24,922 nucleotides of DNA, from positions 1 through 24,922 of the forward strand of contig JAKANV010000001.1 of assembly GCA_021823605.1 (NCBI GenBank). Reading direction: 5' to 3'. Origin of the DNA: a bacterium. Lineage in GTDB: Bacteria > Patescibacteriota > CPR2 > UBA1875 > JAJYID01. The notes beneath the pieces were generated by a model, which saw only the letters and a program-made list of their open reading frames with translations, did no database searches and had not been told where the DNA came from. The translations under genes and the position numbers were made by a program. This document shows, one piece after another, positions 1,994 through 22,608 of this stretch. Within the stretch, counting starts at the first letter, position 1. Each line of letters opens with the position of its first letter.

Positions 1994-2938
1994 ATGGCGA
2001 GCGTTAATGAACTTATCGGTGACTTCCTAGAATACTGTGAGATAGAGAAAAATCACTCTGACTTAACCATCAGAAACTATGAACATTATCTCGGGCGATT
2101 CTTAGACTTTGCCGAGAAAGACCGAAGCCGAGATCTACGTCCAGAACAAATTAATATTGAACTCATTCGCAAATATCGTTTATATCTAAACCGCCTAAAT
2201 ACAGAACTTGGGGGGAATCTAGCAAAAATCACTCAGACCTACCACATCATCGCACTCCGGGCATTCCTCAAATATCTAGCAAAAAGAGATATTAAATCCT
2301 TATCGGCCGAAAAAGTAGAGCTCGGCACCATGGAACGTCGGCAAATTGAATTTTTGGAAATATCTGAAGTCGATGACTTACTCTCTGCACCTGAAAAATA
2401 TCCTTCAAAGAAGGAATTGATAAATTTTCGTGATAGCGCAATTTTAGAAACACTTTTTTCTACCGGACTAAGAATTAGCGAACTTGTGAGTCTAAATCGT
2501 GACCAGATTAATCTCGAACGGGGTGAATTCACAGTGAGAGGTAAAGGAGGAAAAGACCGTGTAGTTTTCCTCTCTGACAGCGCTTCAAAGAAAATTAAAA
2601 GTTATTTGTCAAAAAGGGATGACAACACCAAGCCGCTCTTTACTCATTGTTCCGGCGTAAAAGACGGGCTGGATGAAGGCGAATATATGCGCCTCACCCC
2701 CAGAAGCATTCAGCGGATGGTTTCAAAATACGCCAAACTTGCCGGAATAACAAAAAAAGTAACCCCACATATGCTGAGGCACTCTTTCGCTACAGATCTT
2801 TTAATCAACGGCGCAGACATCAGAAGCGTTCAGGCAATGCTCGGCCACTCATCTATTACAACGACTCAAATCTATACCCACGTCACGAACACCCGACTTC
2901 GTGAAATCCACAAAAACTTTCATGGGAAAAGACACTAG
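1994..2938 (+). CDS. XerC/XerD-family tyrosine recombinase
   Basis: N-terminal SAM-like region and intact catalytic set: R (GLRISE), K (GKGGK), HxxR (HMLRH), H (LGH), Y (TQIYT). Start ATG 1994 preferred over GTG 1976. XerC versus XerD cannot be told apart by eye. Confidence 0.93.
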   Translation: MASVNELIGDFLEYCEIEKNHSDLTIRNYEHYLGRFLDFAEKDRSRDLRPEQINIELIRKYRLYLNRLNTELGGNLAKITQTYHIIALRAFLKYLAKRDIKSLSAEKVELGTMERRQIEFLEISEVDDLLSAPEKYPSKKELINFRDSAILETLFSTGLRISELVSLNRDQINLERGEFTVRGKGGKDRVVFLSDSASKKIKSYLSKRDDNTKPLFTHCSGVKDGLDEGEYMRLTPRSIQRMVSKYAKLAGITKKVTPHMLRHSFATDLLINGADIRSVQAMLGHSSITTTQIYTHVTNTRLREIHKNFHGKRH

Positions 2939-4551
2939 GGTTTTATCCAAGTATTAGCGCCCGTATCTCCTCTATAAGTCCCGACCGTGCCAGTATCCAT
3001 GACTCTTAAATAGTCGTTACGAGTAAAACAACATATACCACTGGCCCAATAGTAGCCAGCAGGGGTATAGAGCACCAGGTTTGCATCAGTCTGCATAACA
3101 GCAAATCCAGCGGTACCACTCGGAGAAGCTGGAGAAGACCAAAGTGGAGTTGTATTACCAATCCGATAAAGCTCTAGTTTGCCATCGGCTTGATATATCA
3201 ATTTATACTGTCCGTTTTCTGAAATTCGATAATTACCAGCATAAAGGACCTCTCCACTATACATGGTGTTAGAGACAAAGCTTGCATTTACTGTCTTGTC
3301 GGCATTCATTATTACACTGCAAGCTCCTGTGCCTGTACAGTCACCTGTCCAACCGTCAAAACCATAGCCTGCTGGTTTAGTATAAGTAATTGTAACGCTA
3401 GTCCCTTCGTCATACTTTCCGGTGCTAGATGCAGGTGATGCTGTGACTGTACAAGTAGGACAACCTGACTTGTTAATATTGAGTGTATATTGCGGTAGCT
3501 CTGTGGCAGCATCTGCTTTAATATACAAATTTTTTAAATATATGCTGCTTCCAGTATTTGTTTGGACTACAAACTTACTAGAATCGTTAGCTGGATCAGG
3601 CCCTGAGCCTATACTTGAACTCAAGGTAGTCGGACCAACTGTGGTTGGAAGGAATAAAGCGCGAGGAACTATATCAGGGTTATAAGACGCAGTTTGAATG
3701 TCGAGACAATCATCATTAGCATCTGTTACCTTCAAACTAAATGTTGAGTTTGTACTTTCCTTACGATAAGTTATTACAAATTTGATAGCCGAATTATTCC
3801 TCAAATCAATGGTCACTAATGTACCCGCCGTGTTAAGAGTTCCACTAGAGGCTGCCGTTGCTCTATTTAGATATATCTTTCCCTGGTATATATCTAATGA
3901 AACACCCGTTTGAGATCCTTGATTAGTAGGATCAACAAAGCCCAAATGGTAATGCTTTACGGACGTCGGATCAATACCACTTATATCACCACTGAAGATA
4001 ATATATTTAGCAGTGGCAGAGATTGAGATACTCGGGGGATCGGGAGATGTTGTTAAATCTATCTCATTATTCGTAATAGTAGTTGCACTATTATATAGAT
4101 TGGTCCATTTTGATACATAACCATCATCGCTTACCCCACCATCTATTTTCCTTCTGATGTTACCGACCTTGCCTTCACTGTAATAACAATATTGCCAGTC
4201 AACACAAGTTCTGGCCGGTGATACTGAGCTATCATACGGGCTACCAGAACCTCCGACCTGGAAGTCATACGTAACATTCGCCAGCTCCTGGTCACTTGAG
4301 ACTGCCACCTTCTGGCCGGTCTTTGTAACCGCTTGCCCGGGATTTGCCGAGGCATAGTTTCTCGCTCTCTCCTCACCAGACTCAGCCGCCATATAGGCTT
4401 CAACGGAACTATCAAGTTGTCGCGTCTGTTTAATTTCAGAAATTAGAATAGTGGTAACTGTACCAATAACTAGAAAAAACAAAGTTATATACAAAGTACT
4501 CCACAGAAGCACCGTACCGCTTTCATTCTTTAAGTATTTGTACATTTTCAT
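2935..4551 (-). CDS. PilX-like minor pilin / pilus tip adhesin with C-terminal InlB B-repeat-like domain and bulb-type (B-type) lectin domain
   Basis: ESG|TVLLW prepilin site lacking Glu5, TM helix and PilX-type 'AYMAAESG'. aa ~355-425 read YTLNINKSG...GYGFDGWTGDCTGTGACSVIMNADKTVNASF. The C-terminus contains QTDANLVLY, matching QxDxNxVxY. ATGA overlap with the upstream pilW-like gene. Confidence 0.82.
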   Translation of the reverse strand: MKMYKYLKNESGTVLLWSTLYITLFFLVIGTVTTILISEIKQTRQLDSSVEAYMAAESGEERARNYASANPGQAVTKTGQKVAVSSDQELANVTYDFQVGGSGSPYDSSVSPARTCVDWQYCYYSEGKVGNIRRKIDGGVSDDGYVSKWTNLYNSATTITNNEIDLTTSPDPPSISISATAKYIIFSGDISGIDPTSVKHYHLGFVDPTNQGSQTGVSLDIYQGKIYLNRATAASSGTLNTAGTLVTIDLRNNSAIKFVITYRKESTNSTFSLKVTDANDDCLDIQTASYNPDIVPRALFLPTTVGPTTLSSSIGSGPDPANDSSKFVVQTNTGSSIYLKNLYIKADAATELPQYTLNINKSGCPTCTVTASPASSTGKYDEGTSVTITYTKPAGYGFDGWTGDCTGTGACSVIMNADKTVNASFVSNTMYSGEVLYAGNYRISENGQYKLIYQADGKLELYRIGNTTPLWSSPASPSGTAGFAVMQTDANLVLYTPAGYYWASGICCFTRNDYLRVMDTGTVGTYRGDTGANTWIKP

Positions 4552-5918
4552 AATTGGTTCCCCATGGTCAAATAACCATTCATTATTATACTCTCTCCGT
4601 ATAATGGGTTCGTCGGATTAGCTATCCCTGACTTAGCAATCTCAAGTGTATACTCAAGTGTCTTTGGATATGTAGAGGTATTGTTTGTAATTTTAAAATT
4701 CCTGATAGATACTCCACTTGTTGTCAGGAGAGGAAGCTTTGCAAGATCGGTCGATGAGGATGCTGGCGAAGATATTGTCACTGTGGGTGCCGAGGTGTAG
4801 CCAGAACCTGCATTTGTAACATTAATCCCAATAATTGTGCCAAGACCATCCGTTGATATAGTTGCTGTTGCTGTAGCACCAATCCCCCCACCTCCGGATA
4901 TCGTAACCGTGGGTGCCGAGGTGTAGCCAGAACCTGCATTTGTAACATTAATGCTGTTAAGTGTATACGACATGCTGGCAGTACCTGAAAAACTTGTACA
5001 ACCACCACCCGATAAAGAGACGGTCGGTCTAGAAGTATAACCAGAACCTCCACTTGTCATAGTAACCCCAGCTACACCATTCGTAATAGCTATCGTTGCT
5101 GCTGCATTCATTGTCGCTCCTCCTCCTGTGAATGTAACTGTAGGGTTAGATGTATAGCCAGAACCTTCATTGGATATATTCGTATTATTCACCTGTCCAC
5201 CTAAAATATCGACAAACCCACTCATACCCGTTCCACCACCACCAGAAAAAGTCATCGTTGGTGGTAATGTATAACCAGAACCTCGCGTTGAATAATTGAT
5301 GTTACCAAATCTTCCTGTTATTGAGGCAAAACCTGACGCACCAGTTCCTCCACCTCCTGAAAAAACGATTCCAGGATTAGATGTACAACCCCTACCTGGA
5401 TTACCAATAGTGACACCTGTTACTGAACCCGAAATACCCGCAGTTGCCGTCGCTTGTGTATTCCCAAATGTAGCTGGGGTCTGTCCTAATCCAAGGTATC
5501 GAGTAGCACCAACTCCAGTACTAGTTTGCGAACAAAAGAAAATAAGTTTGTCAGTTGAATCTTTCATTTTTAATGTTACATAATCCTTAAAAACTATTCT
5601 TTTCAAGCTACCATCACCATTATTCACTGTATCATAGTTACCACTCGTATAGTCGGTATCACTGCATATACCATTATTACCTGTATCTCTTATATCTACC
5701 ACCTCAGCTTCTCTTGCTTGCCTAGCAAAAATCTCTGACACTGTTCTAGACTCCTCCTGAAGGTTGGCCACCATTGTATAGTCCGTTTGCAGCTTATTTA
5801 AGACCAAAAAGAATCCTACGGTTATGGTCATAATGGTAGCAAAAAGACCCATCCCGATAATCAACTCGACGATAGTCGTACCATTTTTCTTGTTAAGATA
5901 TATGAAATATTTTTTCAT
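4548..5918 (-). CDS. PilW-like minor pilin with an inserted array of six Gly/Ser/Thr-rich repeats
   Basis: KNG|TTIVELIIG prepilin motif with Glu5 and TM helix; third position in the fimU-pilV-pilW-pilX order; ATGA overlaps at both ends. Confidence 0.82.
   Translation of the reverse strand: MKKYFIYLNKKNGTTIVELIIGMGLFATIMTITVGFFLVLNKLQTDYTMVANLQEESRTVSEIFARQAREAEVVDIRDTGNNGICSDTDYTSGNYDTVNNGDGSLKRIVFKDYVTLKMKDSTDKLIFFCSQTSTGVGATRYLGLGQTPATFGNTQATATAGISGSVTGVTIGNPGRGCTSNPGIVFSGGGGTGASGFASITGRFGNINYSTRGSGYTLPPTMTFSGGGGTGMSGFVDILGGQVNNTNISNEGSGYTSNPTVTFTGGGATMNAAATIAITNGVAGVTMTSGGSGYTSRPTVSLSGGGCTSFSGTASMSYTLNSINVTNAGSGYTSAPTVTISGGGGIGATATATISTDGLGTIIGINVTNAGSGYTSAPTVTISSPASSSTDLAKLPLLTTSGVSIRNFKITNNTSTYPKTLEYTLEIAKSGIANPTNPLYGESIIMNGYLTMGNQL
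4765..5457 (-). repeat. Six degenerate ~38-42 aa coding repeats, consensus I-x-V-T-N-x-G-S-G-Y-T-S-x-P-T-V-T-x-S-G-G-G
   Basis: Units: NPGRGCTSNPGIVFSGGGG, TRGSGYTLPPTMTFSGGGG, NEGSGYTSNPTVTFTGGG, SGGSGYTSRPTVSLSGGG, NAGSGYTSAPTVTISGGGG, NAGSGYTSAPTVTISSP. The last two share an exact 44-bp repeat (4783-4826 = 4909-4952). Confidence 0.92.
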
Positions 5919-6526: not shown

Positions 6527-7297
6527 TTATTTTAATTCTACTCCACCTTCCTCACTAATGAAAACTGAACGAACCAAACCCTGGCCTCCGCTTATACTTG
6601 TGTTTGAATCAAAATTTATTTCTAGAGAGTTAGGGTAATATTTGGGTGAGCTCTTCGGAACATACTCTTGAGTTTTCGGGGTCTTCTCCCATTCCGGCGT
6701 TCCACCCGTAAATTTAGATAAAAAAGCAGATTCATCTGCTGAGGGTGACGTCTTACTACCAAACATACAATAGCTATAAAACTTTCCATAGGGACTGGTA
6801 TAAATTAAATATAAATAACCCAACGCATCACTATTAGCACCCCTACAATAGCCGGTAATTTTAGTCCCAAGGTCGTTTGTAAGTGTATATTTACCTTCTA
6901 TCTGTATATCTTGTGCATAATTTAAAGATTCTGATAAATCTAATGTTTTAACTGTTCCCTCAGTCAAAACACCACTAACTTCACAATATGGGATAATACT
7001 GATGGGGTTGCGTGATACCACATTATTAGTACCATCACCAGTTTGAATCCTTATGACTTTGAGTTTGATTGGTTTACCATCACAAGCGCCACTAGATTCA
7101 GTTTTCGTAGATAACGTATCAGTGAATCCTTCTCTAATAGTCGTTTGCAGCCTGTTTGCCACATAACCCATATAGGTGCTTTTCCTGCTTATATAATAAC
7201 TGCTTATACTAAGAGTCATAATAACAGCCATAACAGCCATAACAACTATGAGCTCTGTTAACGTATACCCTCTTTTGTTTTTTAAAAGCTTAAACAT
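6527..7297 (-). CDS. FimU/FimT-like minor pilin (prepilin-type N-terminal cleavage/methylation protein)
   Basis: KRG|YTLTELIVVMAVMAVI motif; first gene of the minor pilin run after pilD. ATG 7297 preferred over TTG 7306. Confidence 0.8.
   Translation of the reverse strand: MFKLLKNKRGYTLTELIVVMAVMAVIMTLSISSYYISRKSTYMGYVANRLQTTIREGFTDTLSTKTESSGACDGKPIKLKVIRIQTGDGTNNVVSRNPISIIPYCEVSGVLTEGTVKTLDLSESLNYAQDIQIEGKYTLTNDLGTKITGYCRGANSDALGYLYLIYTSPYGKFYSYCMFGSKTSPSADESAFLSKFTGGTPEWEKTPKTQEYVPKSSPKYYPNSLEINFDSNTSISGGQGLVRSVFISEEGGVELK
7221..7244. repeat. In-frame 9-bp tandem repeat (ATAACAGCC x2.7) in the pilin TM helix
   Basis: 7221-7229, 7230-7238, partial 7239-7244; encodes VMAVMAV on the minus strand. 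Confidence 0.6.
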
Positions 7298-7342: not shown

Positions 7343-8146
7343 CTATAAGAAAAGTTTAACATAAAAACTTACCAAATGCTCTCCCAAAAAAAGACCGACA
7401 AATGTACCAATGACTAAGAAGGGGCCAAAGGGTATTTTCGAGCCCAGCTTCTTCTTTCCGGAAATGAGCGTAAAGACTCCGACGAGCGCCCCCAAGAAAA
7501 ATGCAGCATAAAGAGCAACCAAAGTACCCTGCCAGCCTAAAATTAATCCCATCAGCGCTACTAGTTTGATGTCTCCGCCCCCCATCCACTTTCCGTTTGA
7601 TATGGTAGCGAGTGTGAAGAAAAATCCTCCGGCAAGCAAGCCAGATAAAAGATGGTCAATTAAGTAGCTAATATTTCCAGTAAGAACAACATTTGTTAAA
7701 ACGTAAATCAAAGCCACGGCTAGCGCAGTGTAAATAATCTCGTCCGGGATAATCCGATGTTTTAAATCGTAAACAAAAATAGCAATCAAAGATGAAATAA
7801 AAAACAGCCAAAAAACAATATTGATAAAGTTCAAAGCTGTAAAACGACCAAATTGAAGAAAAAAATAACCAGTTGCTGCAAAGATTAATCCGGTTGATAA
7901 CTCAACTAAAGGATATTGGATAGAAATTTCCTTCTTACAGCTCCGGCACTTGCCCCGTAATATTAGCCACGAAATAACGGGAATATTATCAGACCACTTA
8001 ATCTTTTCCTCACAATGCGGACAAAAAGACCGTCCATTCAAACTTTTTCTTTTCTTGGCTTCTAGCCGATAGATAAGGACATTCAAGAAGCTGCCGATAC
8101 ATAGACCGACAAGAAATAAGAAAAACAAAATCAGATAAAAAGACAT
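7343..8146 (-). CDS. pilD: Prepilin peptidase / N-methyltransferase (A24)
   Basis: GSFLNV, two CxxC motifs (CPHC, CRSC), catalytic Asp motifs VYDLKH and MGGGDIKL, and IPFGPFL. ATG 8146 preferred over TTG 8164. Confidence 0.96.
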   Translation of the reverse strand: MSFYLILFFLFLVGLCIGSFLNVLIYRLEAKKRKSLNGRSFCPHCEEKIKWSDNIPVISWLILRGKCRSCKKEISIQYPLVELSTGLIFAATGYFFLQFGRFTALNFINIVFWLFFISSLIAIFVYDLKHRIIPDEIIYTALAVALIYVLTNVVLTGNISYLIDHLLSGLLAGGFFFTLATISNGKWMGGGDIKLVALMGLILGWQGTLVALYAAFFLGALVGVFTLISGKKKLGSKIPFGPFLVIGTFVGLFLGEHLVSFYVKLFL

Positions 8147-8152
8147 AAGAAT

Positions 8153-8158
8153 ATTATA
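8153..8158 (-). promoter_or_regulatory. -10 box for pilD, probably leaderless
   Basis: Perfect TATAAT (8158-8153), 6 nt, ATG 8146; no SD; no clear -35. Confidence 0.55.
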
Positions 8159-8162
8159 CACC

Positions 8163-8182
8163 AAAAAAAACTCCTTTCGGAG
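8163..8182 (-). terminator. Intrinsic terminator after the LamG pilin pair
   Basis: Minus strand CTCC-GAAA-GGAG followed by T8. A second imperfect hairpin lies at 8195-8221. Confidence 0.65.
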
Positions 8183-10009: not shown

Positions 10010-12442
10010 ATGAACAAGCAGGAGATAGCTAAGCATAAATCTCTACCCATTGATCTAGTGGGTATTTTTAGAAAAAGTTTCCTATCAGGCGGTGAAAACC
10101 TTTGTCTGACCATCATTAAAATAGGGATTTATTTAATACTTACCTTACCCCTAACTGCATCATACGGGTTTCTCATGCTGAATATGGAAGCCAAAGTATA
10201 TCTTTTTAGAATTCTCGTTGAAATCATGGCAATAGCATGGACTTGGTTAATCCTTTTCTACCCCGAGTGGAGGAAACCTTGGCGGAAAATCCATGGGATC
10301 AGTAAGCTGATTTTAGTATTCATCGCTCTTTTCATGCTGTCTGCACTCCTTTCCACCATAATTAGTGTAGACCCTTCGTTTAGTTTCTTTTCGGATGTGC
10401 AGAGAGGAATGGGATTTTTAACCGTCTCTCATGTCTTCTTATTTTTTGCCATACTTTTCACGGTTTTTAACGCTAAATCATTTATCAGTCTTTTTAAATT
10501 TTCCGTCATAGTTTCTCTAGGTGTCTCTTTCTTTGCAATAATCCAAAATAACTTTGCCGTTTTGATGAATACACAAAGGATTCAGGGTACCATGGATTAC
10601 CCGAGCTTTTTTGCCGCATATCTGATATTCAATATCTTTTTTGCCTTCTTGGTAGCATCTGATTCAAAAAGAAAACAAGAAAGACTTATCTACTACCTCA
10701 TCTCAGCTATCCTCATAATAACACTGGTTTTTGCGGGTATTAGGGGGGCTATGGTGGGCTTTGCCGCCGGCATACTTGTCTCTTTTCTCTTAGTTTTAAT
10801 TTCCACAAGATTTAATCCGTTTCAAAGAAAGAATCTCCGAAAACCATATGTCCTCGGAATTATTTTATTGGCTATTCTATCTGTAGGTTTAATTGTTTTC
10901 ACCTATACAAACAAAAACTCAGTTTGGGTTACAAAAACTCCCCTGAAATACCTATCAAAAATAACATTGTCTGAAGGAAGCAGACGTATTACCGTATGGA
11001 AACTTTCGTATAATGCCTTCAAGGAAAAGCCAATCATCGGGTGGGGAATAGAGAATTTCGATGCTGCATACGCCAAATATTATGACCCTAAACTTTATGA
11101 AGGGGAGGGCCTTTCAAGGCAAAAATTTGACAAAGCCCATAATGTTTTGGTTGATACCTCTGTTACTCAGGGTCTACTTGGAGTTATTTCATATATTGGA
11201 ATATTTGGACTGTCAGCATTCGGACTATATCGATCTGTCAAAGATAGAAAAGTAAAAGAAAGGTTAACAAGAAGCAAGACCTTAAGGTCGCCTCCTTTAG
11301 CAGCATCTTTCCTAGTTGGGTTACTCGTTGCTTATCTCGTACAAAACCTTTTTGTCTTCGATACAGTCACTTCCTACTTTCTCTTCTTTCTTTTATTAGT
11401 TTACATACTCAAGATAAATATCGCTTCTGAAAGTACAATAAAGAAAACAAAAATTCAGGCTCAAAGTAAAAAAACGGTAGATAGCTTCCCACTTGATGCA
11501 AAATATTGGAAATTACCTTTATTCATAATTTTCTCTCTACCGATAATCTACTTCATTTGGTTATTTAATTTGTCATTCGGTTACTCCTCGCACCTTTTTG
11601 TTAGAGCTGTCCAAATCAGCAATCAAGGCGATTATAAGAAGGCCCTGCCCTTATACGAAAAATCTCTAAAAACATCCCACATTGAAGGAGCCGAAATAGA
11701 TGATAACCTCATAAATGTAACGACTAATGTCTTTAAAAAAGGAAGCTCTGACCTCGCTTGGCAGTATTTCTACTTGGTTGAAATGAGGGAAAAAGATAAA
11801 ATCAGCTCCAAAATATACCCGTATCTATATCTAGCCAATATTTATGAAACCGCATCCGACAAAAACCCTAAATATCTCGACCCGGCTGTCAAATACTATG
11901 AAGATGCAATTTTGCTGTCTCCAAAACAACTATTTATCTATTACGACTTAGCCAATTTGTATGCAGATAAGCATTTGTACAATAAAGCTTACACAACCCT
12001 AGACAGAGTCAGATCCTTTGACCCCGAGATAAATCCGGAAACCAACAGACATTACTTTGAAACAGCGCTTCGTGAAGAAAATAAGGAGCGAGCATTCAAA
12101 GAACTTGAGAATATGAGAGCTAAAATATCGAGAAATAATAGTATAGCTGACAAGAGTGATGCCTTCATCCAAGTTTTGTTAGAAAGTTCAAGAGGAGCAG
12201 TAGTCTATGACAGGACTGATCTTTTCCGAGACATAATTGACAATAATTATCATAAATACCTAGAAGCTTACGCAAACTCTGAGGGTTCAAAGACTGACAC
12301 GCTTTTTAAAATAGTACTCATAAACATTAACTTGAAAGAAAAAGAACAGGCCAAGAAAATAGCGAAAAGAATAGTCGTTTCTGACCCCGAATCCAAAGCA
12401 GATATCGATGGAGTTCTAAAAGCGATAGATTCTCTTAAATAA
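10010..12442 (+). CDS. O-antigen ligase family (Wzy_C) membrane protein with C-terminal TPRs; candidate pilin oligosaccharyltransferase
   Basis: About 12 TM segments; RIQGTMDYPSFFAAYL, IRGA, RITVWK...KPIIGWGIENF and AHNVLVD...GLLG motifs; TPR-like helices (KALPLYEKSL, AVKYYEDAILLSP, YYDLANLY). Confidence 0.88.
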   Translation: MNKQEIAKHKSLPIDLVGIFRKSFLSGGENLCLTIIKIGIYLILTLPLTASYGFLMLNMEAKVYLFRILVEIMAIAWTWLILFYPEWRKPWRKIHGISKLILVFIALFMLSALLSTIISVDPSFSFFSDVQRGMGFLTVSHVFLFFAILFTVFNAKSFISLFKFSVIVSLGVSFFAIIQNNFAVLMNTQRIQGTMDYPSFFAAYLIFNIFFAFLVASDSKRKQERLIYYLISAILIITLVFAGIRGAMVGFAAGILVSFLLVLISTRFNPFQRKNLRKPYVLGIILLAILSVGLIVFTYTNKNSVWVTKTPLKYLSKITLSEGSRRITVWKLSYNAFKEKPIIGWGIENFDAAYAKYYDPKLYEGEGLSRQKFDKAHNVLVDTSVTQGLLGVISYIGIFGLSAFGLYRSVKDRKVKERLTRSKTLRSPPLAASFLVGLLVAYLVQNLFVFDTVTSYFLFFLLLVYILKINIASESTIKKTKIQAQSKKTVDSFPLDAKYWKLPLFIIFSLPIIYFIWLFNLSFGYSSHLFVRAVQISNQGDYKKALPLYEKSLKTSHIEGAEIDDNLINVTTNVFKKGSSDLAWQYFYLVEMREKDKISSKIYPYLYLANIYETASDKNPKYLDPAVKYYEDAILLSPKQLFIYYDLANLYADKHLYNKAYTTLDRVRSFDPEINPETNRHYFETALREENKERAFKELENMRAKISRNNSIADKSDAFIQVLLESSRGAVVYDRTDLFRDIIDNNYHKYLEAYANSEGSKTDTLFKIVLININLKEKEQAKKIAKRIVVSDPESKADIDGVLKAIDSLK

Positions 12443-12504: not shown

Positions 12505-13857
12505 ATGGGCTTCAAAAAACTTTTGCTATTTGTCTGTGACGCTTTTGTTTTCTATGGAAGCCTGGCATTATTTATTACCATAAGATATCCCAACGACTTT
12601 CTGTATAACTGGAACTTGCACTATAAGATTTTCTCCATTCTATTTTTGATTCTTATCTTCAGCTTTTATGCTGTCGATCTTTACGAACTTGACTACTGGA
12701 AGAGTAAAGCCGACCTTTTCTCTAAAACTTTAAAAGTGGTGACTATAAACTTTGCTCTTGCCATAACACTTTTTTACTTCTTCCGCACACCTATCGCCCC
12801 TAAGACAAACCTATTTCTTTTCACCTTTCTTTTCACCTTTCTTTTCCTGCCAGCCAGGCTTTTCATGGCAAGATTTTTAAGGCTAACCCTACCATCAAAA
12901 AAGGCTCTTTTCCTGGGCAATGACAAATATTTTCAAAAAATATCTGATTTTCTCCGTGAAAATCCCCATGCAGGATATAAGATTGTTGCATTTGCACCTA
13001 CTGAAAAAATAAAATCTGCTGATAAAAAGATAAAGATAATATCTGACCATGAGAAACTTTTTAGCTTTTTGCAAAAAAGCAGTGTCAAAGTCGTCATCTC
13101 AAGCCTTAACCCCCACTTAACTAAAGAAAGTGTCAGCAGTCTTTATAACAGCATCCCCCTAAACATAGAGTTCCTATCCATCAACAAGTTCTATGAAAGT
13201 ATCAACACTAGAGTTAGTTTAGATACACTCGACGAATTCTGGTTCTTGGAGAACCTGGCAAAGGGTGAGAAAAAGATTCAAGGAATGATAAAGAGAGGCT
13301 TTGACTTCTTTGTTAGTCTAGCACTCGGAATTATTTGTCTACCCTTTATCCCATTTATAATTATCGCTATCAAGCTGACAAGCTCGGGCTCCATCCTATT
13401 CAAACAAACCCGGGTTGGGCTAGTTGGGAATAATTTCCAAATCATCAAGTTCCGGACAATGGTTAAAGATGCTGAAAAAAATGGGCCACAATGGGCAACA
13501 CAGAATGATCCTAGGATTACAAAAATCGGAAAATTCCTTCGTAAAACTCATCTGGATGAAATACCTCAACTTTATAATGTAATCATTGGGAATATGTCAC
13601 TTGTCGGCCCCCGACCTGAAAGACCAGAGTTTGAGGAAAAACTTTCAAAAGAAATTCCTTTTTATTCTATTCGGCACTTAGTGAAGCCGGGCATAACAGG
13701 CATGACCCAAATCCGCTCATTTTATGAGTCAACCACTGAGGACGCCAAAGATAAACTTGAGTATGAGCTTTTCTACATAAAAAACAGAAACTTCTTCATG
13801 GATTTGAAAATTATACTAAAGACTATCCATCAGATATTTAAGGCGTCAGGTAGGTAG
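12505..13857 (+). CDS. Polyprenyl-phosphate hexose-1-phosphate transferase (WbaP/WcaJ-like initiating sugar transferase)
   Basis: Four N-terminal TMs, CoA_binding_3-like middle region, and Bac_transf motifs KRGFD, IIKFRTM, DPRITKIGKFLRKTHLDEIPQLYNV and MSLVGPRPERP. Confidence 0.94.
   Translation: MGFKKLLLFVCDAFVFYGSLALFITIRYPNDFLYNWNLHYKIFSILFLILIFSFYAVDLYELDYWKSKADLFSKTLKVVTINFALAITLFYFFRTPIAPKTNLFLFTFLFTFLFLPARLFMARFLRLTLPSKKALFLGNDKYFQKISDFLRENPHAGYKIVAFAPTEKIKSADKKIKIISDHEKLFSFLQKSSVKVVISSLNPHLTKESVSSLYNSIPLNIEFLSINKFYESINTRVSLDTLDEFWFLENLAKGEKKIQGMIKRGFDFFVSLALGIICLPFIPFIIIAIKLTSSGSILFKQTRVGLVGNNFQIIKFRTMVKDAEKNGPQWATQNDPRITKIGKFLRKTHLDEIPQLYNVIIGNMSLVGPRPERPEFEEKLSKEIPFYSIRHLVKPGITGMTQIRSFYESTTEDAKDKLEYELFYIKNRNFFMDLKIILKTIHQIFKASGR
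12814..12846 (+). repeat. In-frame 12-bp tandem repeat (TTTCTTTTCACC x2.75)
   Basis: 12814-12825, 12826-12837, partial 12838-12846; encodes FLFT-FLFT-FLF in a TM helix. Confidence 0.75.
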
Positions 13858-18471: not shown

Positions 18472-19695
18472 TTACTTTTTCGGCGTGAAGTTTTGGAAGT
18501 TCTGAATACTGTAAACCGGTAATAAAATACAGATTATTATCGTACCGACGATACCGCCCATTATCACAATCATTATCGGCTCCAGGAGCGACTGCAAACT
18601 CTTCGTCATATTATCAAGCTCATCATCATAGTAATCCGCCATATTTTGTAGCATCGTATCCAACTCACCGGTACTTTCACCGACTGCTATCATTTGTGAG
18701 ACCATTATCGGGAAAAGCTCCTCTTCTTTCAGGGAAGCCGAGAGTGCTTTACCCTGTTTTACCTTATCTTTTACTCTCGTAATTGAATCCGAATATATTA
18801 CATTCGGCATGGCTTCTGAAACTATTTGTAACGCGTCAAGAATAGGAACACCCGACGCGATTAAGCTGGCAAGAGTACGAGTAAAGATAGATAAATATGA
18901 AAGAGCTACAAATTTACCAACCAACGGAACGTTTATCTTTATCCTATGCCAGATGTATTTTCCCGTCTCATTTGTCCTTGTATATATTCTCGCGCTTATA
19001 AATGCTGCTACCGCTACTAACAAAACCAGCAAGAAATATCTAGCTAGAAAATGGCTTGTTGCAATCAAAAATCTCGTAGGCAGCGGGAGGGTGGAGTTAA
19101 AACTTTTATACAAACTTTCCATTTGCGGCAGAATGAAAATTATAAGACCAGCAACGACACCTATAACAACTACTGATAGAAAGGCAGGATAAATAAAAAC
19201 AGTTTTTATCTTCTTTAGGGTTTTATACGTTTTTTCTGTTTGATCTGCCATATGAACCAAAACTTCATCAATCTTACCACTGGCCTCACCGGCAGCAATA
19301 ATGCTAATGTCGGTTTTGTTAAAAGTATCGGGAAAAGCACCAAAAGCAGAAGACATGCTTCCGCCTGCTTCTATGTCACGAGTCATCTGCTCTATCATCT
19401 TTTTTACATTTTTCCGGGAAGTCTGTTCAAGAAGTGTAGATAGAGCTTGAGATATCGGCAATCCAGCATGTGTCATAGTCGCAAGTTGCCTAATAAAGAA
19501 CACTTTATCCTTTCTTGAAACTTTATTGCCGAATGAAATGCCACCCAAAGAGCTCTTTGAAGCTTCCTTAATATCAATAGGAACGATGCCTTTTGAAATC
19601 AAAAGTGTAGATGCAGCCTGTTCACTCTCCGCTTCTATTATGCCCTGTGCTGCCGCACCATCTTTACCTCTTGCTTTGTAGCTAAACTCTCTCAT
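18472..19695 (-). CDS. pilC: Type IV pilus inner-membrane platform protein (GspF/PilC family)
   Basis: FSYKARGKDG, FIRQLATMTHAGLPI, AGEASGKIDEVL, YPAF, VGESTGELD and LLEPIMI motifs. Confidence 0.95.
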   Translation of the reverse strand: MREFSYKARGKDGAAAQGIIEAESEQAASTLLISKGIVPIDIKEASKSSLGGISFGNKVSRKDKVFFIRQLATMTHAGLPISQALSTLLEQTSRKNVKKMIEQMTRDIEAGGSMSSAFGAFPDTFNKTDISIIAAGEASGKIDEVLVHMADQTEKTYKTLKKIKTVFIYPAFLSVVVIGVVAGLIIFILPQMESLYKSFNSTLPLPTRFLIATSHFLARYFLLVLLVAVAAFISARIYTRTNETGKYIWHRIKINVPLVGKFVALSYLSIFTRTLASLIASGVPILDALQIVSEAMPNVIYSDSITRVKDKVKQGKALSASLKEEELFPIMVSQMIAVGESTGELDTMLQNMADYYDDELDNMTKSLQSLLEPIMIVIMGGIVGTIIICILLPVYSIQNFQNFTPKK

Positions 19696-19698
19696 TTT

Positions 19699-20772
19699 TT
19701 ATCCGTGAAGAAGCCTTTCAAGCTCTTTTATATCAATTGCATAACCTTTAGCCTCATCGAGCGTGATTCTGCCGGTTTTAATAAGACTTGCGAGCGTTCT
19801 ATCCATTGCCTGCATTCCTTCTGAAGCGCCGGTCTGAATAACTGCCTCAAGCTGGTGAGTTTTCTGCTCACGAATGATATTTCTGACGGCCGGAGTAACA
19901 ACTAGAATCTCAGCCGCCGCAATACGTCCTCCGCCAATTGACGGGATAAGACGCTGAGAGACTATACCCTGTAAAATATTTGAAAGCTGAACTCTTATCT
20001 GTTGCTGCTGATGCGGCGGAAATACGTCTATCATTCTGTCTACTGACTGAGCAGCATTGTTTGTATGTAAAGTAGCGAAAACCAGATGCCCAGTTTCAGC
20101 AATGGTAATAGCCGCTGCGATAGTTTCAAGGTCACGCATTTCACCGATTAAAACTACGTCAGGATCTTCACGGAGAACACTCCTTAAAGCAGCCGCGAAA
20201 GAACGTGTATCATAGTGCACCTCACGTTGCTCAACAATAGATTTTTTATGAGAGTGGGTATACTCAATCGGATCCTCTACTGTAATAATATGGCACGCGC
20301 GTTCGCTATTTATCTTATCCACCATAGCTGCCAAAGTCGTAGATTTACCTGAACCGGTAGGACCCGTCACAAGCACTAAACCTCTCGGATATTCGGTAAA
20401 CTTATCCACTATCTTTGGCATTCCAAGCTGAGTTAGATTTCTAATGGCAACCGGTATCAAACGAAGTGCAAGCCCAACATTACCCTTTTGATGATATGCA
20501 TTTGCCCTAAATCTAGCCAAATCACCATAAGTAAAGGAGAAGTCCACTTCTTTATCGCGTTCTAATATATCTTTTTGTACATCATCAAGAATAGAAAGAG
20601 TCAAATCGTGTACATCTTTATCAGTTAAAGCCCTGGCACCTTCTACTGGGACAAGAGCACCGTCAACCCTAAGCATCGGCGGCACACCAACTGTTAGATG
20701 AAGGTCACTTGCGTCTTTCTTTATAACTTCCTCTAGGAAGTTTTCAATTTTTAGTTTTGCTGTTTCTGCCAT
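19699..20772 (-). CDS. pilT: Type IV pilus retraction ATPase
   Basis: ASDLHL, Walker A GPTGSGKSTT, EDPIE, Walker B LREDPDVVLIGEMRD, HLVFATLHT, and AVRNIIRE (AIRNLIRE motif). Confidence 0.97.
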   Translation of the reverse strand: MAETAKLKIENFLEEVIKKDASDLHLTVGVPPMLRVDGALVPVEGARALTDKDVHDLTLSILDDVQKDILERDKEVDFSFTYGDLARFRANAYHQKGNVGLALRLIPVAIRNLTQLGMPKIVDKFTEYPRGLVLVTGPTGSGKSTTLAAMVDKINSERACHIITVEDPIEYTHSHKKSIVEQREVHYDTRSFAAALRSVLREDPDVVLIGEMRDLETIAAAITIAETGHLVFATLHTNNAAQSVDRMIDVFPPHQQQQIRVQLSNILQGIVSQRLIPSIGGGRIAAAEILVVTPAVRNIIREQKTHQLEAVIQTGASEGMQAMDRTLASLIKTGRITLDEAKGYAIDIKELERLLHG

Positions 20773-20796
20773 GTCTTTGGCCCTCCTTCTACTATT

Positions 20797-20825
20797 ATTC
20801 TATGGAAATACAGTAAATTTTACAA
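20797..20825 (-). promoter_or_regulatory. Internal sigma70 promoter for pilT-pilC
   Basis: TTGTAA (20825-20820), 17 nt, TAGAAT (20802-20797); SD AAGGAGG before ATG 20772. Confidence 0.6.
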
Positions 20826-20838
20826 TGCTTTTGCTCTA

Positions 20839-22608
20839 TTACTCTGTTGTTGTTCTTACTACTTCCTCAAGTGTGGTAATACCTGCAAGAGCCTTCAAGA
20901 AGCCATCTTGGCGCATTGTCACCATACCTTGCTTAACTGCTGCCTCTTGAATATCGCTGGAGGAAGCATGCCCGACAATGAGATCTTCAATCTTTTCAGT
21001 TACACTAAATATCTCATAAACACCGGTTCTGCCCCAGTAACCCGTATTCTTACAATAGTCACAGCCTTTTCCTTTATATAACTTAAATTTTTCATCTTCC
21101 ATAAAAGGCAGGCTGTCGAATCCCAACTCTTGTGTTTTTTCTTTCGGGTCACTCTTTGAAGGCAAAATACCTTTTAAAGATAATTTAATAGCTTTAACAA
21201 GGCTCGGACTGGCCTCATATTCTTCCTTACAATGATCGCATATCTGCCTTACAAGTCTTTGGGCTATAACAGTATTTACTGTTGAGGCAATAAGAAATGG
21301 CTCAATATCCATTTCGAGAAGTCTTGGCAGTGCTCCGGCAGCAGAATTGGTATGAAGAGTGGAAAGTACAGTATGGCCGGTAAGCGCTGACTGAACTGCT
21401 AACTCAGCGGTTTCTTTATCACGAATTTCTCCGACCATTATCACATCAGGATCCTGACGCAAGATGGAACGTAAACCGGAAGAAAATGTCAAACCTACCG
21501 CATTATTCACTTGTATCTGGTTAATGCCATTAATATTATATTCTACCGGGTCCTCAACCGTGATAATGTTGACGCTTGGTTTATTTATCTTTGATAAAAC
21601 GGCATACAAAGAAGTAGATTTACCCGAACCGGTTGGACCTGTCGCCAAGATCATGCCATGAGGTTTCTTCGTGCCTTCCTCAATGATTCTAAAAGCTCTT
21701 CCTTTTATGCCAAGATTTTCAAGTGTAATGATGCCGCTTGTCTTGTCCAAAAGCCTGATAACAACTTTTTCGCCGTAAACAATTGGGGTTATAGAAATAC
21801 GAAGGTCAATTTCCCGGTCTTCAAGATTTAACTGAAAACGACCGTCTTGCGGAACACGATGCTCGTCTATTTTCAGGTTCGAAAGTATTTTGATACGTGA
21901 AACAAGTGCGGGATGGATGTGCTTGGGCAACGTCATTGTATTATACAAAATACCATCAATTCGATATCTGACCTTAATCTCTTTTTCCCTCGGTTCAATA
22001 TGGATGTCTGATGCCCTAGACTTAGCCGCATATTCTAATATCGTATTTAAAGCTCTGGTAATCGGTGCGTCTTGGGTAATAACAGCGGCATCACCCTCTT
22101 TACCCTCGTCTTCCTTTAAGTTTATCTCAGGAGGCTTCTCCATATTGCCAATAACATTTTGAACCTCAACCGAGTAATCGTCATATTGATTTAGGGCCTT
22201 CCTCATACCTTCTTCAGAAGCAAAGTAAGGCTTCAGTTTCAACCCGGTCTTTTTCTCAACATACTCGATGGCCATAATATCGTTGGGGTCAGTCATGGCT
22301 ACATTCAGGAAATCACCGACTTTGCCGAAAGATACCAGCTTGTATTTCTCAGCTATATCTTTACTGACAATATTTAGAATCGCCTTATCAATTTTTTTCT
22401 GGGATAAATCGACATAAGGCAAGCCCATGGTTACCGCCATAGCCTTTGTCAGGCCTTCTTTTGGTATCTCTGGCATATCATTTAATATCTTTTGTATTGG
22501 TTTGCCAGTTTCAGCGCTCTCAACCTTAATAAGGTCAAGCTGCTTTTGTGTCAGTAGACCTAGCTTGACCAGAAAATCTTCAAGTTTTTTTTCGTTTCTA
22601 ACAGCCAT
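20839..22608 (-). CDS. pilB: Type IV pilus assembly ATPase (GspE/PilB family)
   Basis: N-terminal GSPII_N/MshEN-like region, ASDIHIEP, RVPQDGR, Walker A GPTGSGKST, LRQDPDVIMVGEIRD, and tetracysteine Zn site (CDHC...CDYC). Confidence 0.97.
   Translation of the reverse strand: MAVRNEKKLEDFLVKLGLLTQKQLDLIKVESAETGKPIQKILNDMPEIPKEGLTKAMAVTMGLPYVDLSQKKIDKAILNIVSKDIAEKYKLVSFGKVGDFLNVAMTDPNDIMAIEYVEKKTGLKLKPYFASEEGMRKALNQYDDYSVEVQNVIGNMEKPPEINLKEDEGKEGDAAVITQDAPITRALNTILEYAAKSRASDIHIEPREKEIKVRYRIDGILYNTMTLPKHIHPALVSRIKILSNLKIDEHRVPQDGRFQLNLEDREIDLRISITPIVYGEKVVIRLLDKTSGIITLENLGIKGRAFRIIEEGTKKPHGMILATGPTGSGKSTSLYAVLSKINKPSVNIITVEDPVEYNINGINQIQVNNAVGLTFSSGLRSILRQDPDVIMVGEIRDKETAELAVQSALTGHTVLSTLHTNSAAGALPRLLEMDIEPFLIASTVNTVIAQRLVRQICDHCKEEYEASPSLVKAIKLSLKGILPSKSDPKEKTQELGFDSLPFMEDEKFKLYKGKGCDYCKNTGYWGRTGVYEIFSVTEKIEDLIVGHASSSDIQEAAVKQGMVTMRQDGFLKALAGITTLEEVVRTTTE

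Follow-up and report, generated by a model that had tools for sequence, protein, structure and literature searches.

A phage-typical β-repeat array within the head of a putative PilW/GspJ-class minor pilin from a Patescibacteria pilus locus

Contig JAKANV010000001.1 of assembly GCA_021823605.1, from an ultrasmall bacterium of the CPR2 lineage of Patescibacteriota, carries a type IV pilus (T4P) locus within the 24,922-nucleotide stretch analysed here, which we refer to as the window. The third of its four consecutive minor-pilin genes, situated before a PilX/GspK-like gene, is an intact minus-strand open reading frame (ORF) for a protein of 456 residues, P0001. This protein is, by operon position and modelled fold, a minor pilin of the PilW/GspJ class, and its head is interrupted by an array of glycine-rich β-repeats that we found in none of its orthologues. 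Phage virion proteins commonly carry the same repeat, which also recurs, probably through independent fusions, on other pilus proteins. In the reading that we favour, P0001 is a modular minor pilin in which the array would form an additional contact arm or spacer at the pilus tip.

An array nested in the head of a minor pilin

The leader of P0001 (KKNG followed by TTIVELIIGMGLF) is short and basic and ends in Gly, with Glu at position +5 and a hydrophobic helix next, as in class III pilins, and the gene lies with those for a prepilin peptidase, assembly ATPase and platform protein, the context of a type IV pilin. Pfam placed P0001 in no family at E ≤ 0.1, N_methyl (PF07963) and PilW included, although the pilin motif is present by eye; three neighbouring pilins scored above the curated N_methyl cut-off and the PilV-like neighbour matched weakly. 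The sole NCBIfam match was a weak one to ComGE (E 0.12), with none to a curated PilW/GspJ model. A whole-protein model built with the orthologue alignment comprises a helix at residues 16–69, strands up to residue 147, the insert, and three further strands at 403–451. The low-confidence insert was trimmed before the structural search, for which the best matches were all pilins: Thermus TTHA1219 (score 9.5), XcpW (8.7), EpsJ (8.3), GspJ (7.6) and the pilin module of Streptococcus sanguinis PilB (7.6). The initial annotation of this DNA had proposed a PilW-like pilin, an assignment that the third-gene position and the predicted GspJ/XcpW-like fold bear out, though no curated sequence model does.

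A search for P0001 in 41 related genomes gave matches in 29, its own included. The four-gene order of minor pilins is kept in nine relatives, in which the third gene encodes 173–216 residues, compared with 456 here. Orthologues align to residues 8–147 and 382–456 of P0001 only, with 5–19 residues at the site where P0001 has approximately 230, and this site is the one loop whose length varies among them. On the strength of these alignments we take the array to be a lineage-specific insertion in the pilin head. It was absent from every orthologue examined: the closest, from the same genus, is 41% identical and 216 residues long, without the array, and three larger ones (237–305 residues) carry unrelated extra sequence with no repeats. 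When 5.8 billion proteins were searched with residues 1–150, only the query itself was recovered in the size range of 250–798 residues. The source genome (86% complete) yielded no other copy of the repeat and no in-genome donor. Approximately 60 residues of pilin head that can be aligned to the orthologues follow the array, an arrangement distinct from a C-terminal fusion through a short linker. An array interrupting the head, with pilin sequence resuming at LPLLTTSGVSIRNFKI, is what the initial annotation had described, and the orthologue alignment indeed covers both sides and restarts at that point.

The array consists of tandem units of approximately 39 residues that follow the consensus ...TNxGSGYTSAPTVTxxGGGGxGATATA.... 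All six of the glycine-rich repeats that had been noted in the approximately 230-residue region could be located, with GxGYTxxPxV cores starting at residues 175, 213, 252, 291, 329 and 371, the first being degenerate (GRGCT), and with a spacing of 38–42 residues (114–126 nucleotides (nt)). By composition (22% Gly, 17% Thr, 13% Ser; 4 Arg, 2 Asp, 1 Glu and no Lys), the array carries almost no charge and is dominated by Gly, Thr, Ser and Asn. Chance falls far short of explaining the repeats, given E-values down to 1e-35 in searches of PHROGs and a predicted local confidence (pLDDT) of 92 in the AlphaFold2 model of the array.

That model, made with an alignment of 60 homologous segments, is all β (predicted template modelling score 0.68). 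Each modelled unit opens with a long, bent strand or hairpin, passes through the GxGYTxxP loop and closes with a short strand; one small β-barrel seems to take about two repeats, which would give about three barrels for the array. Foldseek found no match in the PDB at E ≤ 1e-3 and 41 viral matches in BFVD at the same threshold, while nine of the 10 Atlas rows shown were viral (neck, sheath, nozzle, YHYH and DUF4815 proteins), the tenth being a Verrucomicrobiota enzyme family. Many weaker structural rows align 70–90 residues that span model residues 1–5 to 235–240. Judging from these alignment ranges, the array seems to have its two ends packed against each other, as insertion into a loop would require.

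The sole PDB match of the array profile was BurrH (4cj9_A), an α-helical TALE-like repeat, at low accuracy (E 2e-8 summed, best stretch 0.0016). The array is confidently predicted to be all β, and we read this match (GFSxxDIVKIAGNxGGAQAL) as a coincidence of period and Gly/Ala pattern.

The repeat in phage, cellular and pilus proteins

Searches of Pfam and NCBIfam with the array returned nothing useful, and a single-sequence search of the PDB returned nothing. In PHROGs, by contrast, the array matched phrog_701, 708, 460, 19630 and 5342 (E 1e-19 to 1e-35), annotated as virion structural protein, baseplate wedge, head closure Hc2 and tail fibre. Among 50,697 cultured-phage records there were 69 matches, all from Synechococcus or Prochlorococcus cyanophages, and those listed were labelled ‘virion structural protein’; the array is 40–42% identical to proteins of Synechococcus phage ACG-2014d/g. 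The PHROG, cultured-phage and structural searches together uphold the statement of the initial annotation that this type of repeat is common in virion proteins of T4-like (cyano)myoviruses. A HMMER search over 1.84 billion cluster representatives recovered 7,962 clusters at E ≤ 1e-3 and 434 at E ≤ 1e-30, and the best-scoring 150 were mostly proteins of 1,000–7,000 residues, with best identities of 50–55%.

The array is nested in host proteins among the phage carriers as well. In the tail sheath proteins P0104 and P0017, it lies between Gp18_domIII_N and the sheath core, the exposed position, where T4 has its exposed domains, and in P0103 (469 residues) it is apparently nested inside DUF2460, a phage tail-associated family that was matched in two stretches. 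The latter arrangement is consistent with array ends that pack together. Judged from these sequences, the array generally behaves as an insertable module. The phage GxGYTxxPxV proteins (cyanomyovirus structural, sheath, neck, baseplate wedge and nozzle proteins) share the repeat with P0001 by sequence and by predicted shape. Unlike them, P0001 is a pilus subunit whose chromosomal operon keeps its synteny in related genomes, and the family is not restricted to phage.

A candidate relative of known structure is domain I of the T4 sheath protein gp18 (PDB 3FOA and 3FO8; residues ~98–188), a six-stranded barrel in which GSNY and GKNY stand 41 residues apart. In the superposition GSNY falls on the GSGY of unit 2, provided that no early gap is introduced, and the location of the array in sheath proteins fits this match, because T4 has exposed domains there. 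By sequence, hhalign gave domain I a probability of 0.2% and the unit hidden Markov model gave no match above noise. We regard the relationship as a lead only.

Cellular carriers include Bacteroidota lipoproteins and multicopper-oxidase fusions. Among the matches of near-equal length (n = 119), a crude regular expression picked out 27 lipoprotein-like and 20 signal-peptide-like N-termini, and several of these matches lie on contigs of 0.3–1.7 Mb. Within the phylum of the source organism, the repeat was found in four of 301 genomes and within a pilin only in P0001; the other Patescibacteria carriers have a predicted signal peptide or membrane anchor. The sequences thus point to a very large uncurated family that is common to virion and cellular surface proteins.

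One Patescibacteria genome, G223, has six matches on three contigs (C9, C31 and C33), and three of its repeat-bearing ORFs were read (L012, L017 and L018). That on C9 (L012, 826–2274) encodes a 482-residue Sec-type secreted protein with six strict motifs, and that on C33 has a membrane-anchor-like N-terminal region. In a genome of the same family as the source organism (G004:C3, L013), a giant ORF with an open frame of 1580 residues carries two repeats beside a seemingly LamG-like region, so the repeat exists in the family outside pilins.

Pilus-type carriers emerged from a screen of the N-termini of 260 homologues. Three PilX-like proteins, P0154 (1131 residues), P0056 (719 residues) and P0198 (834 residues), are each encoded directly after two small N_methyl pilins, with type II secretion system (T2SS)-type T2SSE/T2SSF genes also present in the loci of P0154 and P0198. 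A fourth, P0032 (772 residues), is TadG-like and follows TadE in a Tad locus that also has secretin, TadZ-, TadA- and TadB-type genes. These four share the repeat family with P0001, having 6–9 strict motifs each, and differ from it in the host subunit, which is the last and largest of PilX/TadG type and lacks the Glu5 pilin motif. Loci L020–L022 have a GC content of 0.47–0.53, compared with 0.39 for the window, and PilC is 32% identical. Because the genomes are in this sense unrelated, fusions of the repeat to tip subunits of type IV filaments appear to have arisen several times independently. We regard this recurrence on pilus proteins as the strongest argument for a useful role at the filament tip.

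P0056 and its two pilins are found amid toxin–antitoxin genes (HicB, PIN, MazE and DUF4160/DUF2442) and a Y1 transposase (L021 and L022), which suggests a mobile context for this pilus module.

Role and history of the array

The best overall explanation, which we consider probable, if not strongly so, is that P0001 is a modular minor pilin. The protein would be processed by the prepilin peptidase of the locus and would sit in a PilV–PilW–PilX-type priming complex at the tip of the pilus. The array, acquired between two strands of the pilin head and most likely as one block, would form about three barrels and come back, at its end, to the site where it starts. Projecting from the tip beside the PilX-like protein, it would provide an additional contact arm or spacer through which the pilus could attach reversibly to the surface of a partner cell. 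Starting from the insertion, the family and the fold set out above, we infer the tip location, the exposure and the binding.

This proposal has parallels in the known logic of modular pilins and in what Patescibacteria pili do, which is to mediate host binding via lectin-like minor pilins (PMC11623550). Modular pilins occur widely, are probably exposed at the tip, and as described include repeat-bearing ones from Patescibacteria (PMC8179133). Like modular pilins in the sense of Raynaud et al. (2021), P0001 joins a pilin module to a module that is not specific to pili, its array being shared with phage and other surface proteins. The S. sanguinis proteins PilB (pilin plus vWA) and PilC (pilin plus lectin) are modular pilins (PMC8179133, PMC9934059). 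P0001 differs from both in that its module is nested between two head strands, not attached C-terminally through a linker, and is a tandem-repeat module without a database signature, with a role that is predicted. Compared with the tip-priming minor (pseudo)pilins GspJ, XcpW and EpsJ of the T2SS and PilW of the T4P, it is about twice the usual size through its insert. It is GspK, and not GspJ, that provides the known case of a pilin sheet with an insertion (PMC8179133).

Several points weigh against this proposal. The +1 residue of P0001 is Thr, compared with Met or Phe in the orthologues. In the whole-protein model the array has a pLDDT below 50 when no alignment covers it, and the alignment ranges are the sole source for the packed ends through which it would be seated on the pilin. 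As there is no array-bearing orthologue, selection on the array is not measurable. Expression, assembly, exposure and binding of P0001 are predictions from its sequence and a model, and we know of no binding function for any member of the GxGYT repeat family.

We consider it unlikely that the array has a purely passive part as stalk or glycan carrier, that is, a spacer or an O-glycosylated, mucin-like tip shield with no binding site of its own and with glycans supplied by the glycan island of the locus. Glycosylation of the array or of its return linker is possible, judging from the Ser/Thr richness and the neighbouring island: the array is 30% Ser plus Thr and nearly uncharged, the linker is rich in Ser, Ala and Pro, and a Wzy_C-type ligase-like gene lies 4.5 kb away, accompanied by genes for a sugar transferase, a flippase and a methyltransferase and by two GT4 genes. 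However, typical O-glycosylation sites are disordered segments, whereas most Ser and Thr residues of the array fall in confidently predicted β-strands. The repeat is also widespread among the virion proteins of phages, for which no comparable glycosylation machinery is apparent, and nothing shows that the ligase-like enzyme acts on P0001.

The history put forward in the initial annotation starts with the capture of a phage fibre module, after which recent tandem duplication of whole units would have enlarged the array within the pilin, leaving a copy number that now varies. Taken as a whole, we find this distinctly unlikely. In favour of such growth, units 5 and 6 share an exact 44-nt repeat, just as the annotation had located it, with the two copies in frame and 126 nt apart; the exact match extends no further on either side. 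The two units are 86–88% identical over 68 nt of the 126-nt period, of which 44 nt are exact and then three synonymous differences follow; the 36 nt upstream of this patch are 25% identical, the random level, and the downstream sequence differs too. Whole-unit duplication is disfavoured because the full 126 nt would have been copied, and the cores of the remaining units, 1–4, are only 46–65% identical. The X-Y-X pattern with a single Y in units 5 and 6 fits better with gene conversion over a short tract, or with duplication of part of a unit, between two units that were already there. Since the units had already diverged, the array was probably acquired as a multi-unit block, or is old. Growth by recent duplication is therefore not sustained, the identical patch being shorter than one unit and its flanks unrelated. 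The two 44-nt copies are a plausible substrate for the in-frame loss or gain of exactly one unit.

In favour of a phage origin, the rarity of the repeat in the phylum argues for horizontal acquisition, and its annotated and structural neighbours are mostly viral. The closest arrays, however, are only approximately 50–55% identical, some in phage and some in pilus proteins, and are compatible with transfer in either direction. Among the most similar, P0004 adjoins a tape-measure-like gene and P0122 shares its contig with major-head- and terminase-like genes, so that phage tail and structural proteins are represented. Against this, the array of the PilX-like pilus protein P0154 shows 47–54% identity, equal to any phage protein, and cellular carriers are numerous. 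Alternative registers against P0154 are all 41–49% identical; because they score alike, no donor can be named. The GC content at third codon positions (GC3) is 0.27 in the array (4770–5465), compared with 0.34 in the rest of the gene and 0.395 in the long ORFs of the genome, which would agree with a foreign origin. This shift may instead reflect a preference for GGT in Gly runs: 58% of the Gly codons of the array are GGT, compared with 30% genome-wide (p 1e-4), a difference that is confounded by composition and by avoidance of G-runs. No donor is closer than approximately 55% identity, and we rate capture from a phage as plausible and no more.

The phage-like contig of P0122 (L030, 15236–17857) also encodes a 6277-residue protein with matches to ddrB-ParB, SNF2-helicase and sigma-70 region 2.

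That the insertion is neutral or damaging, the pilin being recently disrupted and non-functional or the contig mis-assembled, is very improbable: P0001 is a singleton, both in its N-terminal part among proteins of its size range and in lacking array-bearing orthologues, and the assembly comprises 95 contigs, but the insertion is in frame in an intact ORF with 4-nt overlaps with both neighbours, it falls exactly in the one length-variable loop, both flanks come from the same gene, which a chimeric join would rarely give, the array folds confidently in its model, and the assembly holds no second PilW-class gene, P0001 having matched its own genome at this gene only.

The locus and the wider meaning of the array

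The source genome amounts to 0.68 Mb, and the window represents a T4P locus with PilB-, PilT- and PilC-type genes (two T2SSE and one T2SSF gene at 18472–22608), a prepilin peptidase and two LamG-type pilins in addition to the four minor pilins. The same window holds a six-gene glycan island, with the Wzy_C plus TPR gene at its head, and ComEC. The 4-nt overlaps of the P0001 gene with both neighbouring genes suggest translational coupling. The coordinates of P0001, its parts and its neighbours are collected in table 1.

Table 1. Features of the P0001 gene and its surroundings, in window coordinates.
Feature	Position	Strand	Remarks
PilW/GspJ-class minor pilin gene (P0001), class as predicted	4548..5918	-	456 aa; 4-nt overlap with each neighbour
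Class III (prepilin) leader, aa 1–13, last residue Gly13; Glu18 is +5 of the mature protein	5880..5918	-	G13 and E18 invariant in orthologues
N-terminal α-1 helix of pilin module, aa 14–69	5712..5879	-	modelled helix 16–69, pLDDT 83–90
Pilin head part 1, aa 70–151, β-strands	5466..5711	-	orthologue match up to about aa 147
Inserted array, six ~39-aa β-repeats, aa 152–383	4770..5465	-	absent in all orthologues examined
Unit 1 core, degenerate, GRGCTSNPGIVFS	5358..5396	-	
Unit 2 core, GSGYTLPPTMTFS	5244..5282	-	
Unit 3 core, GSGYTSNPTVTFT	5127..5165	-	
Unit 4 core, GSGYTSRPTVSLS	5010..5048	-	
Unit 5 core, GSGYTSAPTVTIS	4896..4934	-	
Unit 6 core, GSGYTSAPTVTIS	4770..4808	-	last unit, without GGGG turn
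Exact 44-nt direct repeat, copy in unit 5	4909..4952	.	
Exact 44-nt direct repeat, copy in unit 6	4783..4826	.	126 nt (42 codons) from unit-5 copy, in frame
Ser/Ala/Pro-rich return linker SPASSSTDLAKLP, aa 384–396	4731..4769	-	
Pilin head part 2, aa 397–456, three β-strands	4551..4730	-	orthologue match including TYPKTL motif
PilX-like tip pilin downstream, 538 aa, InlB B-repeat-like domain	2935..4551	-	presumed tip-complex partner
PilV-like minor pilin upstream, 198 aa	5915..6511	-	
First pilin of the four-gene minor-pilin operon, 259 aa	6527..7306	-	N_methyl motif
Prepilin peptidase	7343..8164	-	A24_N_bact and Peptidase_A24
Wzy_C (O-antigen-ligase-like) plus TPR protein, head of glycan island	10010..12442	+	candidate O-oligosaccharyltransferase

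Three other repeats were observed in the window. An 18-nt direct repeat (5616–5633 and 5670–5687; 89% identical, 54 nt apart) lies in the non-repeat part of the P0001 head and encodes DTGNNG and DTVNNG, a small local duplication in a variable loop before the insert. In the gene for the 259-residue pilin, a perfect 9-nt tandem repeat, ATAACAGCC, is present in 2.7 copies at 7221–7244, in the region of the N-terminal helix; it encodes VMAVMAVIM in frame, and slippage would change the length of α-1 by three residues. In the glycan island, the Bac_transf sugar-transferase gene (12505–13857) contains a perfect in-frame 12-nt tandem repeat, TTTCTTTTCACC, in 2.8 copies (12814–12846).

What is new here is an uncurated, phage-typical module that is nested in a subunit of the GspJ/PilW class and recurs on PilX- and TadG-like proteins. 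A broader conjecture, which we offer as a tentative one, is that the ~39-residue GxGYT repeat represents a very large, undescribed family of insertable β-barrel modules. Each barrel would take about two repeats, and the family may be related to domain I of the T4 sheath; phage virion surfaces and filament tips (of PilW, PilX and TadG type) would have taken it up repeatedly and independently, both needing the same weak, reversible grip on cell-surface polymers. In P0001, the array would then be a second arm beside the lectin-bearing PilX-like cap, and the 44-nt repeat would allow its length to change by one unit.

The Patescibacteria way of life is one of attachment to other microbes, with type IV pili as the best candidates for recognizing the partner (PMC11623550). 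The locus described here shows a tip complex that appears to have been rebuilt with borrowed parts. The presence of the repeat on unrelated PilX- and TadG-like proteins points to a shared surface function for the approximately 8,000 clusters of a family for which neither Pfam nor NCBIfam gave a match and sequence search found no solved structure. Characterizing one member would annotate thousands of phage and bacterial surface proteins, and this pilin with its 230-residue insert offers a small, tractable subject.

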